A stretch of 32,000 nucleotides of DNA from Candidatus Saccharimonadota bacterium (GCA_027925225.1 AP027131.1:450001-482000); one strand, 5' to 3'. Shown: positions 18,177-28,881, numbered from the stretch's first letter. Notes: generated by a model from the sequence alone, not told the origin. Translations and numbers: made by a program.

Positions 18177-20244
18177 TTTTATATATTTCCTTATTAAGTT
18201 TCATTTGCAGTTTTTTTGTTCTTTTTAATGCTTTTTTAATTAATTTAATTAAATCTGTATTTTCTTTTAATTTATATTCTTCGTTTTTTAAAAAATCTTT
18301 TTTAATATTTTTATTTTTTTTATCTAATTTTATTTTATCTTTTAATTTATATATCTCTAATTTAATATTTGCATAAGAATCGGTAAATGCTAAAAAGTCT
18401 AAATAATATTCTTGTTCTTCTTTTGTGAATGTTTTTAAATAAGGGGCTCTTGTAATATTTAAAACATTTTTTTCTAAGTTTTCATCAACTTTTTTAAGAT
18501 GCTCTATTCAATTTTCAGAAGAAAATTTTGCAAATCAAGAAGATTTTTTAGATAAAAGAATAGTTAAAAAGTAAGTTAAAACAACTGTTCCTATCATAAT
18601 TAAAATGTAAACTGGTCAATTTAATCATTGTGCATCAAATGAAGAATGGTCAACATTCAAGAAGCCCAATATTCCACCCATACCAATTCCATTGGCCGTT
18701 ATTCCACAAGATACTGAGAATGTACATCCTACTGCAGAACCAATCATTGCAGCAACAAAAGGAAACATAAATCTTAAATTAATTCCATACATTGCAGGTT
18801 CGGTAACTCCAAGCCAACAAGTAATTCCCGCCGATGTTCCTTGTTCTCTAATTTTTGCATCTTTTTGTAAAATATAAACCACAGCAAAAACTGATGCACC
18901 TTGTGCCATATTAGAAAGCGCTACCATTGGGAAAACATAATTTGTTCCTGTTGTTGTAAGCTGAATCATTACAGCATTTAAAGTATGATGTAATCCAGTA
19001 ATAACAAGAACGGGATATAAAAGACCAAATAATGGAGCAAAGAAAAATTTAGCAATTGAATTAGAAAATGCTCAACCAAATATAAAAGAAATTGCAAAAC
19101 CTAATATTGCACCTATTGGTGCTACAATGCCTAATGCCACAACTTGTACAACAAGAATTGTAATAAAAGGCGGTCAAACATATTTAACTGAAGGAATGGT
19201 ATGATCTTCTACAAATTCATAAAATCAAACAGCAAATCAACCAACAAGCAAAGCAGGAATAACTTGACCAACATAAGAAATTGCAAATGGTCAATAATCT
19301 GTAAAATATGATGCATCTAAAGCATTAACAGCATCAAATATTCCTTCTATTTCATATGAACCAGTAATTCCTACTGCATTTAAAGCATTAACAATTTCTT
19401 TGTTTGTACTTGTATCAGATATTCCGGGAATATTTCAGGTTGCTATTTGTTCAGGAGTATAAACTCCTCCTGCAAAAGGACCATAAGATAAATATCCAAC
19501 AGGAATTAAGGAACTGTTTGTAACGTAAATTCAAGTAGAAGGATCAGAATTTGTAGTTTGTACACCAACATAGAAAGTTGGAACATAAATATTATTTATT
19601 GCATCTGAAACATCATACATATTTACCAATGTTCCAGGAGCAACAAGCATAATTCCAATAGCAATTCCTAAAGCGGGTGTTTTATTTTTTCTGTTAAACA
19701 TTGACCAAACAACATGAACCGGAAGATATCAAAAAACAGCTTGAGCAGGTAATCACAACCAATTATCTAACTGTTTTGCAAATTCACTATGTTCAATAGC
19801 AATTGCACCATCACCTGTTCAATCTAGCTCTAATAAATTTCTTAATGCAAGAATTAATCCACCAGCAACAATTACAGGAATTAATGGAATAAAAATTTCA
19901 GAAAAGGTTGTCATTGCTTTCTGAAATTTATTTGCTTGTTTTTTTGCTATTAATTTTGTTTCTTCTTTGCTTGATTTTTTTATATCAATATACTTATTGA
20001 TATAAAAAAAGAACTCTTTTACATTCGGACCAATAATAATTTGAAATTGGCCTTGCTGTGTAAAGGTTCCTTTTACAGAATCTAATTCATCAATTGCAGC
20101 TACATCTACATTTGATGAGTCTTTTAAAACGATTCTTAGTCTTGTTTGACAATGAGTTATTGAAAGAAAGTTATCTTTACCAATTATTTCTACAATCTTT
20201 TTTGCATCATTATCATATTTGGTGTTTATCTTTTGAGAATTCAT
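18139..20244 (-). CDS. treB: PTS EIIBC component of the sucrose/trehalose/beta-glucoside type (probably trehalose) with a ~125-aa charged C-terminal extension, 701 aa
   Basis: The N-terminal EIIB motif is [14 protein letters not shown], followed by [12 protein letters not shown] verified the frame as open from 18142 to 20244 under code 4. The 3' end overlaps the treC start by 38 nt. Confidence 0.75.
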
Positions 20245-20423
20245 CAGATTTATTTATTTTTTGTTTATTACATCTCACAAAGTCATTATATTAGTATCTT
20301 TTTTTGAAGAAAAAAATATTTAAAAAGAATTTTAAATATTTAATTTTAATAAAATAAATATAATAAATAATCAATGTTTATGATATTAATTTAATAATAA
20401 TATATTAGAAATGTGTGGTAAAT

Positions 20424-25880: not shown

Positions 25881-25937
25881 TTTTATTAACTCTCTAAAAA
25901 CTATATATTTCCATTCTTAAAAATTTCAATTAGGATC

Positions 25938-28881
25938 AATTAATAAGTCTTTCGTTCAATTAGTACTGGTTAGCTCAATATATCACTATACTTACACACC
26001 CAGCCTATCGACCTCATAGTCTATAAGGGAACTTATCTCATAAATGAGTGGGATATCTTATCTTGAAGTTTGCTTCGTACTTAGATGCTTTCAGTACTTA
26101 TCAATTCCATACATAGCTACTCAGCGATGCCCTTGGCAGGACAACTGAAACACCAGAGGTATGTCCACCCCGGTCCTCTCGTACTAGGGGAAGCTCTCCT
26201 CAAATATCCTACGGACACAGTAGATATGGACCAAACTGTCTCACGACGTTCTGAACCCAGCTCGCGTGCCTCTTTAATGGGCGAACAGCCCAACCCTTGG
26301 AACCAACTTCAGCTCCAGGATGAGACGAGCCGACATCGAGGTGCCAAACCTCCCCGTCGATGTGAACTCTTGGGGGAGATAAGCCTGTTATCCCCGGAGT
26401 AACTTTTATCCGTTGAGCGCTGGCCTTTCCACACAGGACCAGCGGATCACTAAAACCGTCTTTCGACCCTGTTCGACTTGTAAGTCTTACAGTCAATCAC
26501 ACTTATACTTTTGCGCTCCACACATGATTTCCGACCATGTTGAATGTAACTTTGTACGCCTCCGTTACCTTTTAGGAGGCGACCGCCCCAGTCAAACTAC
26601 CCATCACACACTGTCCTTTATCCAGATAATGGATATAAGTTAGACCTTCAATTTAATAAGGATGGTATCCCAAGGTTGTCTCTGCAATGGCTGGCGCCAC
26701 CGCTTCATTGACTCCCATCTATCCTGTACATATTAAACCAAAAATCAATATGAAACTATAGTAAAGCTTCACGGGGTCTTATTGTCTTACTGCGTCTACC
26801 CTGCATTTTCACAGGGACTAAGATTTCACCGAGCTCGAAGTTGAGACAGCGTCCAGATCATTACACCATTCGTGCGGGTCAGAACTTACCTGACAAGGAA
26901 TTTCGCTACCTTAGGACCGTTATAGTTACAGCCGCCGTTCACTAGGGCTTCATTTCACTGCTTCGACCGAAATCTAACAGATTCACTTAACCTTCTAGCA
27001 CCGGGCAGGCGTCACCCCCTATACTTCAGCTTACGCTTTAGCAGAGAGCTGTGTTTTTGTTAAACAGTTGGCTGGACCTCTTAACTGCGACTAACTTACA
27101 ATCAATTATAAAAATCAACCTTCTTTTAGTACCCCTTCTCGCTAACTTACGGGGTTATTTTGCCGAGTTCCTTAACTCCGATTCTCTCGCTCGCCTTAGG
27201 ATATTCTCCTTGCGCACCCGTGTCGGTTATCGGTACGGGCACAATAAAAATTAACAGTAGAAGCTTTTCTTGGAAGCATGACATCAGCAACTTCGCTACT
27301 CCCCGAAGGTTTCACTCCCCATCATAACTCAGTGTTAAATCAAACGGATTTGCCTATTTGACCACCTATATTATTTAGACAAGCACTACCAATCACTTGC
27401 TTTGCTTAGCCTTCTCCGTCACTCCATCCCTTTTTATCGTGGTACAGGAATATCAACCTGTTTTCCATCGACTACGCCTTTCGGCCTCGCCTTAGGACCC
27501 GACTAACCCTGGGCGGACGAACCTTCCCCAGGAAACCTTGCGCATACGGCGTGAAGGATTCTCACCTTCAATCGATACTCACGCCGGCATTCTCACTTCT
27601 ATACGGTCCACCAGTCCTCACGATCTGGCTTCATTCCATATAGAACGCTCCCCTACCACTTCTACATAAAGTAGAAATTCATAGTTTCGGTATTATACTT
27701 TAGCCCCGTTAAATCTTCGGCGCACAATTCCTTGACTTGTGAGCTGTTACGCACTCGTTAAATGGTGGCTGCTTCTAAGCCAACATCCAAGCTGTTTATG
27801 GAATTGCACATCCTTAACCACTTAGTATAATTTAGGGACCTTAACTGATGATCTGGGTTGTTTCCCTCGCGCCTATGGACGTTATCACCCATAGACTGAC
27901 TGCCATGCATACAGAATAATATTCGGAGTTTATTTATATTCAGTACCCCTAGATGGGGCCATCATATAATTAGTGCTCTACCCTCATTCTGCTAAAATCA
28001 TGACGCTAGCCCTAAAGCTATTTCGGGGAGAACCAGCTATATCCAGGTTCGATTGGAATTTCACCACTATCCACAAGTCATCCAAAAACTTTACAACGTT
28101 TACTGGTTCGGGCCTCCATAAAGTGTTACCTTTACTTCACCCTGCTCATGGATAGATCACCTGGTTTCGGGTCTACAACTACATACTATACGCCCTATTA
28201 AGACTCGGTTTCCTACGGCTCCGCTTACCTTAACCTCGCATGTAATCATAACTCGCCGGCTCATTCTGCAAAAGGCACGCCATCACCCATTAACGGGCTC
28301 TGACTTTTTGTAGGCAATTATGGTTTCAGGATCTATTTCACTCCCCTCCCGGGGTTCTTTTCACTTTTCCCTCACGGTACTGGTTCACTATCGGTGAATA
28401 GGTAGTATTTAGCCTTACCCAGTGGTCTGGGTAGATTCAGACAGAATTTCTCGTGTTCCGTCCTACTCAGGATTCCACAAAGAGATGATTACATTTCAAG
28501 TACGGGACTATAACCTTCTTTGGTCCAGTTTCCCAACTGTGTTCCTCTATATAACCATTTTGTAACTCTTATAAAGTGGTCCTACAACCCCAACACTTAG
28601 AAAAGTGCTGGTTTGGGCTCATCCGCTTTCGCTCGCCGCTACTTACGGAATCGAATTCTCTTTCTTTTCCTCTAGGTACTTAGATGTTTCAGTTCCCTAG
28701 GTTCCCTTCCTTAAAGCTATGTATTCACTAAAAGGATACTGAATTTCTCAGTGGGTTTCCCCATTCGGAAATCCCTGGATCAACGTATATTTCCAACTCT
28801 CCAAGGCTTATCGCAGGTAATCGCGTCCTTCATCGGCTCCTATTCCCAAGGCATCCACCATATGCCCTTAATAACTTATTA
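25938..28881 (-). rRNA. rrl: 23S ribosomal RNA (large subunit), complete
   Basis: The reverse complement carries GGTGGATGCCTTGG near the 5' end, the sarcin-ricin loop AGTACGAGAGGACCGG, GGATAACAGGC and ends in GTACTAATTGAACGAAAGACTTATTAATT. The ends were placed by alignment to the E. coli termini from memory and by the 5'/3' helix AATAAGT/ACTTATT, so allow about 10 nt of error. Confidence 0.95.

Follow-up and report, generated by a model that had tools for sequence, protein, structure and literature searches.

How does the interior of a 23S rRNA gene come to lie beside the first codons of a trehalose transporter gene? The question is raised by a stretch of 32,000 nucleotides (nt) of AP027131.1 (positions 450001-482000, assembly GCA_027925225.1; hereafter, the window), whose proteins of 350 and 218 amino acids (aa) are 100% identical to HPAVJP_3980 and HPAVJP_4040 of Candidatus Hepatoplasma vulgare. 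This organism is a Mollicute found in the midgut glands of the woodlouse Armadillidium vulgare, an isopod, and is known as a metagenome-assembled genome (MAG) (PMC10928387). Its reduced genome has a size of 662 kb, and the window has a G+C content of 25%. Open reading frames (ORFs) were called with genetic code 4 (TGA = Trp); table-11 calls gave no long ORFs. Here, we show that a segment of roughly 3 kb between treB, which is listed as a trehalose transporter in the source paper (PMC10928387), and the 23S rRNA gene is present twice in direct orientation. We hold with good confidence that it is a genuine, old head-to-tail duplication in the H. vulgare chromosome, followed by reciprocal decay of the copies, in a part of the genome with many toxin-antitoxin and defence-like genes.

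Two collinear repeats and the junction between them

Comparison of the window with itself by blastn revealed two pairs of repeats, and a separate repeat search found the same pairs. In the left pair, positions 20222-21537 match 22982-24298 with 95.5% identity over 1318 columns (E = 0), and in the right pair 22648-22951 match 25845-26158 with 86.2% identity over 319 columns (E = 1.9e-90). Both pairs are direct, lie on the same strand and are collinear, with offsets of 2760/2761 for the left pair and about 3200 for the right pair; weaker left homology extends to about 21585/24362, inside a small coiled-coil gene. A preliminary description of this DNA had claimed two collinear blocks, and alignment of 20222-22951 with 22982-26159 bore this out: the breakpoints could be fixed, and the similarities are collinear and above chance. 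The contents that had been assigned to the flanks were also found, namely the first treB codons, the promoter region, a membrane-protein gene and the head of a coiled-coil gene on the left, and the rRNA terminator (a 12-bp hairpin), a 90-nt spacer and the last 213 nt of the 23S rRNA gene on the right (Table 1).

The homology to the 23S rRNA gene ends abruptly at position 22951 (= 26158, 213 nt from the 23S 3' end), and the homology to treB, which comprises the start codon and six further codons (MNSQKI-K/N), starts at about 22980-22982, next to this 23S-internal end across a filler of about 30 nt between 22951 and 22982 (CCTTCTTCACTTGATAAAAAAATAAGTTC). The filler has no other match in the window at up to three mismatches, and a three-way comparison with 23S and treB gave no convincing alignment. 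Outward of the duplication the sequence is intact and single-copy, with the full treB gene to the left and the full 23S rRNA gene to the right. Filler aside, the junction between the 23S interior and the 5' end of treB is the novel joint expected of a head-to-tail duplication. The preliminary description had recognized this joint correctly, but its details needed adjustment: the treB remnant comprises codons 1-7, where codon ~8 had been named as the limit, the 23S piece measures 213 nt, and the filler takes the place of a clean join. A 27-mer specific for the junction was absent from the JGI metagenomes.

Table 1. Features of the duplicated region and its surroundings (positions counted from the first nucleotide of the window)
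Feature	Position	Strand	Basis or remark
Glycolysis genes, then a glucose-type phosphotransferase system (PTS) gene and a gene for an 825-aa repetitive protein	upstream part of window		code-4 ORFs
Short-chain dehydrogenase gene	15140-15865	-	code-4 ORF
cc143, coiled-coil gene	16020-16451	+	code-4 ORF
treA	16497-18176	-	code-4 ORF
treB, intact, PTS trehalose EIIBC, 701 aa	18139-20244	-	Pfam PTS_EIIC 8.8e-26, PTS_EIIB 4.3e-11
Copy 1 left end, first 7 treB codons	20222-20244	-	
Copy 1 left flank: treB codons 1-7, divergent intergenic region, memb1, coiled-coil head	20222-21585		alignment
memb1, intact N-terminally anchored membrane protein, 306-309 aa	20415-21344	+	code-4 ORF
Tract of 342 nt with zero differences from 23920-24261	21159-21500		segment-wise divergence
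Truncated coiled-coil head, 44 codons, cut by the abi350 segment	21449-21583	+	homologous to the 24210-24425 gene
abi350 (HPAVJP_3980), 350-aa orphan, copy 1 cargo	21575-22627	-	code-4 ORF
Duplicated rRNA terminator hairpin, still intact	22651-22685	-	folding
Decayed 23S stub, last 213 nt of 23S	22740-22951	-	alignment to live 23S
Junction filler, ~30 nt	22952-22981		homologous to neither 23S nor treB
treB remnant, start codon + 6 codons (MNSQKIK), copy 2 left end	22982-23004	-	
Duplicated treB/memb divergent intergenic (promoter) region	23005-23175		98% identical to 20245-20414
memb2 pseudogene	23176-24105	+	alignment to memb1
Complete small coiled-coil gene, 71 aa	24210-24425	+	left-flank homology stops inside
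Second coiled-coil gene, 82-86 aa	24470-24730	+	tandem paralogue of the 24210-24425 gene and cc143
tm125, two-transmembrane (two-TM) small protein with coiled-coil tail	24762-25139	-	ORF
pan218 (HPAVJP_4040), divergent Panacea-like candidate antitoxin	25132-25788	-	
Terminator hairpin of functional 23S	25849-25883	-	folding
Intact 23S rRNA gene	25939-28881	-	Rfam RF02541, 2790 bits, model 1-2925
Copy 2 right end, last 213 nt of intact 23S	25939-26158 (+ strand coordinates)		

Reciprocal decay of the copies

The 23S stub in copy 1 differs from the live gene by 32 substitutions at 209 aligned sites (21 GC>AT, 6 AT>GC and 5 A<>T), and small insertions and a deletion of 11 nt add to these. For 30 of these 32 sites, the 23S rRNA of the closest relative, a Logan contig (ERR14127475; hereafter, L001), matches the intact gene, and the changes therefore lie on the stub. 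GC sites changed at a rate of 25.6% and AT sites at 8.7%, and the G+C content of the stub is 32%, versus 38% in the parent 23S segment. In the scan of the window, the stub fell below the Rfam gathering threshold; the states that it carries are of the H. vulgare/L001 type, not of the H. scabrum/crinochetorum type. A substitution bias of this kind marks decay without constraint, driven by the mutation pressure of the genome towards A+T, and no assembler can produce it. Set against its frozen parent, the stub provides a dated, internally calibrated view of neutral decay.

At the other end, it is copy 2 that has decayed. In memb2, the ATG start codon has become ATA (23185-23187), and the gene further carries a 1-nt deletion at 23256, a 1-nt insertion at 23610 and the changes GAA>TAA at 23514, CAA>TAA at 23668 and TGA>TAA at 23806, giving a total of three stops, two frameshifts and a lost start codon. 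Its counterpart memb1 has full length, like its homologues of 305-329 aa; only six homologues were found among 5.8 billion clusters, with 45-72% identity and all from Hepatoplasma-like sources, and memb1 has no Pfam match. Each copy has thus kept one functional end, as had been proposed: copy 1 the intact treB and memb1 genes, and copy 2 the intact 23S rRNA gene. The source genome carries the 23S fragment, the treB remnant and the membrane-gene pseudogene without annotation, and the text of the source paper mentions neither the duplication nor the stub nor pseudogenes, the word "pseudogene" occurring zero times (PMC10928387).

Uneven divergence and probable gene conversion

The divergence between the copies of the left flank varies by segment. 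It is 1.8% in the intergenic region (three substitutions and one indel in 170 nt), 4.7% in the 5' part of the membrane gene, 7.6% in its middle part and 9.3% in the coiled-coil head. Between the last two blocks lies a tract of 342 nt (21159-21500 = 23920-24261) without a single difference. In a permutation test, only one of 200000 permutations reached an identical run of this length (P ~5e-6), and gene conversion of one copy by the other is the probable origin of the tract; a recA gene exists in the genus Hepatoplasma. Within the stub, an identical block of 47-48 nt (22821-22868 = 26029-26076) is also longer than expected (P ~0.004, permutation), and may be a short conversion tract or due to chance. 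Overall, the divergence of the left flank is only a half to a third of what the decay of the stub would lead one to expect. This fits a pair that was initially identical and was partly homogenised by conversion, or was temporarily under selection, and it argues against the import of an already diverged copy.

The locus in related genomes

The preliminary description had proposed a comparison of the locus in relatives, and this proved informative. In this neighbourhood, the proteins of contig L001 have 62-90% aa identity to those of the window, and the gene order agrees from gpmI as far as the dehydrogenase gene. Next in L001 come memb(+), tm(-), pan(-), an orphan of 575 aa(-), a terminator hairpin that is the same as in the window, and 23S(-). 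Thus, L001 has a single copy of the memb-tm-pan-terminator-23S unit, it lacks treAB, the coiled-coil genes and abi350, and no trace of a second 23S was found at this locus. A single memb gene is likewise present behind the rRNA operon in H. scabrum, in H. crinochetorum Ps and in a further Hepatoplasma-type sequence (L003). Because the single-copy L001 carries the tm/pan pair by 23S, the tm/pan cargo of copy 2 is ancestral. In the spacer downstream of 23S, the two copies in the window resemble each other more than either resembles L001, indicating that the duplication postdates the split from L001.

A proposed sequence of events and its alternatives

Judging from the relative, the order before the event would have been treB(-), membrane gene(+), one or more coiled-coil genes(+), two-TM gene(-), Panacea-like gene(-), terminator and 23S(-). 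A single illegitimate join would then have connected 23S, at a position 213 nt short of its 3' end, with codon 7 of treB and left the ~30 nt of filler; the route could have been a template switch during replication or an unequal exchange of sister chromosomes. The outcome would have been two tandem units with a complete treB gene at the left and a complete 23S rRNA gene at the right, of which the junction itself is directly visible, although subsequent trimming of junk at this joint may have shifted the breakpoints from their original positions. The redundant parts have decayed into the states seen today, i.e. an A+T-shifted stub shortened by 11 nt, a treB remnant of seven codons and the disrupted memb2. 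Meanwhile, the copies would have recombined with each other, as the statistically supported identical tract suggests. Copy 2 keeps the ancestral PanAT-like pair, and copy 1 has lost this pair together with the coiled-coil tail and carries the orphan abi350 instead. This difference in cargo could have come about by insertion-with-deletion at the terminator edge or by different losses from a larger ancestral unit.

That illegitimate recombination creates tandem duplications whose redundant copies then degenerate reciprocally is textbook bacterial genome dynamics, and most bacterial duplications are unstable and seen only under selection. The H. vulgare locus resembles such cases in its direct collinear copies, in the one novel junction of a distal to a proximal sequence, in the complete genes found only at the outer edges, and in the inner pseudogenisation, the AT-biased decay and the probable conversion between copies. 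It differs in being old (about 15% decay of the stub) and fixed in a reduced genome, in having its endpoint inside the sole 23S rRNA gene, and in that the copies now contain different accessory genes. The event is of an ordinary kind, and nothing in it overturns current understanding; it does illustrate that a strongly reduced symbiont genome of 662 kb still makes and keeps segmental duplications. The duplication is probably without function, a neutral relic within the accessory island found behind the rRNA genes throughout Hepatoplasma.

Several points weigh against a genuine duplication or limit what can be said of it. The coverage of the AP027131 MAG is low, 15x for Oxford Nanopore Technologies (ONT) reads (>5 kb) and 38x for Illumina, and the host is shared with the far more abundant H. 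crinochetorum (PMC10928387). In its rRNA and tRNA regions, the MAG initially contained chimeras with Ca. H. crinochetorum Tokyo2021, which were repaired manually using a SPAdes assembly and an unpolished ONT assembly; the same paper also lists 42 Illumina structural variants (PMC10928387). The patched rRNA region adjoins the duplication, which abuts the 23S rRNA gene. Moreover, the evidence for the duplication is the assembled sequence, and the databases searched contained no other strain of H. vulgare in which the arrangement could be seen a second time. With an outgroup as distant as about 70% aa identity, the polarity of changes in the membrane gene is noisy, with 22 changes on copy 2 and 16 on copy 1; the filler, with no visible microhomology, is compatible with more than one joining mechanism. 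It is therefore conceivable that the manual rRNA repair, or a mixture of two co-resident haplotypes, produced a tandem arrangement that is present in no cell, but we regard this as quite improbable. A patching error would have copied near-identical sequence, whereas 15% of the stub is substituted with a GC>AT bias and 11 nt are deleted; the stub is joined via an unmatched filler to a treB remnant of seven codons and lies 3 kb away from the real 23S rRNA gene. A genome with a single rRNA set could not have had the decayed 23S as its only copy, so that two haplotypes leave the stub unexplained. In addition, three of the memb2 lesions are base substitutions and not homopolymer indels of the ONT type, and the 3' end of the 23S rRNA gene in the window, like the stub, is of the H. 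vulgare/L001 type and not of the crinochetorum/scabrum type.

Two further explanations concern the origin of the second copy. DNA from a diverged H. vulgare-like strain (treB-memb-cc-abi350-terminator-23S) could have integrated by a homologous crossover in or to the left of treB and one illegitimate end-join at the treB start of the recipient, creating a hetero-duplication in one step. A single event of this kind would account for both the different cargo and the local divergence of 5-9%, the genus has recA, and the presence of abi350 homologues at a different locus in other species indicates that this gene has moved. However, import predicts a near-identical rRNA piece and a diverged coding flank, and the reverse is seen, the stub being the most and the left flank the least diverged part. 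Since, in addition, the spacer and terminator of both copies share states that are absent from L001, and no donor-type strain is known, we consider import unlikely. Alternatively, the stub could be the relic of a former second rRNA operon and independent of the membrane-gene repeat, which would require two events. Some relatives do have two rRNA sets, Ca. Tyloplasma litorale having six rRNA genes (PMC10928387), and the rRNA genes are unlinked in the H. vulgare lineage. Yet the terminator and the 90-nt spacer of the live gene recur beside the stub, and the stub is joined to the start of treB and then to a second copy of the treB-memb intergenic region. One junction accounts for both repeats and for their collinearity, and the L001 locus is free of any second 23S; hence, we rejected this explanation, which appears highly improbable.

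An accessory island downstream of the rRNA genes

Like the window, other Hepatoplasma genomes have variable genes at this site. The canonical 16S-23S-5S operon of H. scabrum, H. crinochetorum Ps and L003 has the membrane gene directly behind it, together with a toxin-Panacea pair or two and, in some of these genomes, additional orphans, and in a hydrothermal-vent MAG only a 249-aa ORF follows the rRNA operon before gatCAB. The gene directly after the terminator or 5S also varies: it is abi350 in copy 1, pan218 in copy 2, the 575-aa orphan in L001, an orphan of 268 or 301 aa in L003 and H. crinochetorum Ps, and a toxin-Panacea pair in H. scabrum. The 575-aa gene of L001 lies within about 12 nt of the hairpin, between the hairpin and the pan leader. 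The hairpin itself, a 12-bp stem with A and U runs (-11 kcal/mol, z = -2.5 for the duplicate at 22651-22685), is common to both copies and L001; the terminator scan missed this A/U-rich structure, which was confirmed by folding. Taken together, the 3' flank of the rRNA genes is a variable accessory island across the genus Hepatoplasma. Among the island genes, only the Panacea pairs belong to a recognised family. The abi350, 575-aa and 268-aa proteins have no PADLOC match, the 575-aa protein has no meaningful Pfam match, and for the 268-aa protein no Pfam hit is on record.

Hotspots of defence and accessory genes at conserved chromosomal landmarks are a known phenomenon. The post-terminator site in Hepatoplasma is similar in that it holds different genes in each genome examined, with Panacea pairs recurring. 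It differs in that no integrase, att site or signature of a mobile element is visible at the site, and in that most of the island genes are orphans without a recognised defence domain.

The arrangement around the membrane gene differs between species: in H. crinochetorum Ps (L009 4548-7663) memb is flanked on both sides by toxin-Panacea pairs (183 + 159 aa and 194 + 152 aa), versus only one such pair in H. scabrum. The rRNA genes themselves also differ in organization among the loci compared (window 25939-28881 with its flanks, L001 13917-14361 and L002 3844-8750). The 23S rRNA gene in the window stands alone: it is not followed by a 5S gene, and the preceding 3.1 kb contain no 16S. A 3' flank without 5S is likewise present in L001 (13917-14361), and H. 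scabrum, H. crinochetorum Ps and the vent MAG have a normal 16S-23S-5S operon. The flank common to the window and L001 indicates that the rRNA operon was broken up in the H. vulgare/L001 lineage; given L001, it is less likely that the isolated 23S is an effect of patching.

The cargo of copy 2: a PanAT-like pair

The pair tm125/pan218, whose genes overlap by 8 nt, is conserved in L001, where the partner gene is 48% identical to tm125. The family of pan218 has eight members. The protein itself matches no profile in the Pfam and other scans, so that the label "Panacea-like" that it had been given holds only by a transitive link. Three of the five relatives scanned, including the paralogue of pan218 at 439-1155 in the window, match phrog_1281 (2.6e-4 to 4.4e-3, from profile position 7 or 36 to 154), and the Hepatoplasma proteins of H. 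scabrum and L003 that pass PF13274 match the same profile at 7.8e-23 and 1.3e-21. More directly, PF13274 gives sub-threshold matches (E = 0.05) to two of the eight family members, and the NCBIfam model SocA matches the window paralogue P0014 with E = 0.011, far below the cutoff. The motifs KYKILYF, W.AF.NGP and SH.T.PW occur in the family in the order known from Panacea, and hhalign aligns the GPV and (S/T)H..W motifs of the family with those of Panacea, with a weak E value of 0.08. We regard tm125 as a candidate membrane toxin and pan218 as a divergent Panacea-like candidate antitoxin.

In PanAT systems, membrane toxins (PanT) that depolarise the membrane are paired with a Panacea/DUF4065 antitoxin (PMC8832971). 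The tm125/pan218 pair is like them in being a two-gene operon of overlapping ORFs with a small two-TM protein as presumed toxin, in having the GPV...Y and SH..PW motifs of its family in Panacea order, and in the occurrence of multiple dispersed copies per genome, as reported for other Mollicutes (PMC8832971). The differences are that pan218 lies below the Pfam and NCBIfam thresholds, has an N-terminal extension of about 75 aa and is linked to Panacea only transitively, via phrog_1281. A second candidate PanAT pair lies about 24 kb from pan218, at 439-1155 (+) (HPAVJP_3790) and 1148-1570 (+). The first of these genes has 78% nt identity to part of pan218 and overlaps the second, a 140-aa two-TM gene. 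The L001 genome also contains pan218-like copies, one beside GmrSD and one inside a ribosomal-protein operon. The latter (L008 6001-6741, Logan ERR14127475) is inserted between infA and rpsM and is followed by a 650-nt stretch without a called gene.

The cargo of copy 1: the orphan abi350

The start codon of abi350 lies 23 nt from the duplicated terminator hairpin, leaving a 23-nt leader. In a word-indexed search its sole exact match was itself, and an exhaustive HMMER scan of 1.84 billion representatives found only four homologues, with 34-42% identity. Three contigs with homologues were retrieved (H. crinochetorum Ps, H. scabrum and a Logan contig with the same neighbourhood), and in all three the gene lies downstream of rpoC, beside a HinfI-type restriction-modification (R-M) pair or a GmrSD gene. 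The family has an invariant SNE..E..FEEM.F.DY block, and LRNKIxHxKT, an Rx4H motif, is kept in all four full-length members.

The protein had been labelled "Abi_2-like", a label that we could not uphold. There was no match of abi350 to Abi_2 (PF07751) at E <=10 nor of its four homologues at E <=1, no PADLOC match at E <=1 and no match to another Pfam or NCBIfam family. Against PHROG, the family gave only two chance-level hits, both in one homologue (P0008, E ~0.04); a profile search of PDB sequences gave a chance hit only, and no relative was found by tblastn in collections of phages and plasmids. The predicted structure is all-alpha (pLDDT 75.9), and the model has no Foldseek match.

The HEPN superfamily comprises Rx4-6H RNases and includes the abortive-infection proteins of the Abi_2/AbiD-AbiF type. 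The orphan abi350 is like these in its length of about 350 aa, in its all-alpha prediction, in the invariant R-N-x-x-x-H motif near its C-terminal third and in the position of its homologues beside restriction systems. It differs in matching neither Abi_2 nor PADLOC AbiD nor any other profile, in lacking a Foldseek match, and in that its family is confined to five proteins of Hepatoplasma-type genomes. Based on the Rx4H motif and the restriction neighbours of the homologues, it is a reasonable hypothesis that abi350 is a candidate HEPN-like defence gene.

The region downstream of rpoC, in turn, is a second variable defence island in Hepatoplasma (L004 8001-11023, L005 8001-10297, L006 4067-7110). 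Here the abi350 homologue is accompanied by a GmrSD-type gene or by a HinfI-type endonuclease together with an N6/N4 methyltransferase, and the gene order varies from species to species.

How the cargos came to differ

As described beforehand, the cargo between the shared flanks is entirely different, consisting of abi350 in copy 1 and of the coiled-coil tail, the second coiled-coil gene and tm125/pan218 in copy 2. Since both cargos had been seen as defence- or toxin-antitoxin-like, the slot had been regarded as a cassette-exchange hotspot. The variability of the rRNA 3' flank among relatives speaks for this view, but the difference between the copies is equally well explained by reciprocal loss. 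On the one hand, cassette exchange would involve an insertion-with-deletion at the terminator edge in copy 1. On the other hand, reciprocal loss would start from an ancestral memb-cc-cc-tm-pan-abi-terminator unit and require two deletions, one per copy; a layout of pan, another gene and the terminator is seen in L001, where the other gene is the 575-aa one. The left edge of the abi350 segment lies in a repetitive coiled-coil gene with 42-nt repeats. Of this repeat (14 aa), cc143 has 5.4 copies with 94% identity, and its paralogues have one or two. Members of the coiled-coil family (16020-16451, 21449-21583, 24210-24425 and 24470-24730) border every variable block, to the left of treA, at the left edge of abi350 and to the left of tm/pan, and the coiled-coil gene is therefore a plausible recombination substrate. 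No specific Pfam family was found for these genes, cc143 having only generic coiled-coil matches.

A more far-reaching reading, which we put forward only tentatively and consider rather doubtful, is that the duplication provided a second post-terminator slot in a Hepatoplasmataceae capture hotspot and that abi350 was captured there, as the founder of a new Hepatoplasma-specific HEPN-like (Rx4H) family of abortive-infection RNases. As parts of this tentative reading, the post-terminator site would have been loaded repeatedly with PanAT-type pairs and orphan defence genes, and the abi350 family would elsewhere travel with HinfI-type R-M and GmrSD genes downstream of rpoC. For the biology of defence and toxin-antitoxin systems in uncultivable Mollicutes, the rRNA-following island, the divergent Panacea-like family with its two-TM partners and the Rx4H orphan family are leads, of modest specialist interest.

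Other features of the window

A scan of GTDB with TreB patterns gave no match, probably because most of the patterns held Trp, which is encoded by TGA here. A promoter scan was uninformative in this AT-rich window, with 69 sites versus 63 expected. The cc143-treA-treB block (15866-20414) is absent from L001 (9866-10000), where the dehydrogenase gene is directly followed by memb. In H. scabrum and H. crinochetorum, accession numbers place the trehalose transporter among CRISPR-Cas genes (PMC10928387). That the block is missing in L001 and located elsewhere in other species indicates that the tre genes moved in H. vulgare.

Just upstream of the 23S promoter region, two small paralogous membrane proteins of 119 and 109 aa are encoded by adjacent genes (29965-30324 and 30325-30654, both +); one of them was scanned against Pfam, with no match. 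Near the other end of the window, two tandem genes for paralogous polytopic membrane proteins of 296 and 306 aa (1582-2472 and 2683-3603, both -) share 81% nt identity and constitute a further local tandem duplication.

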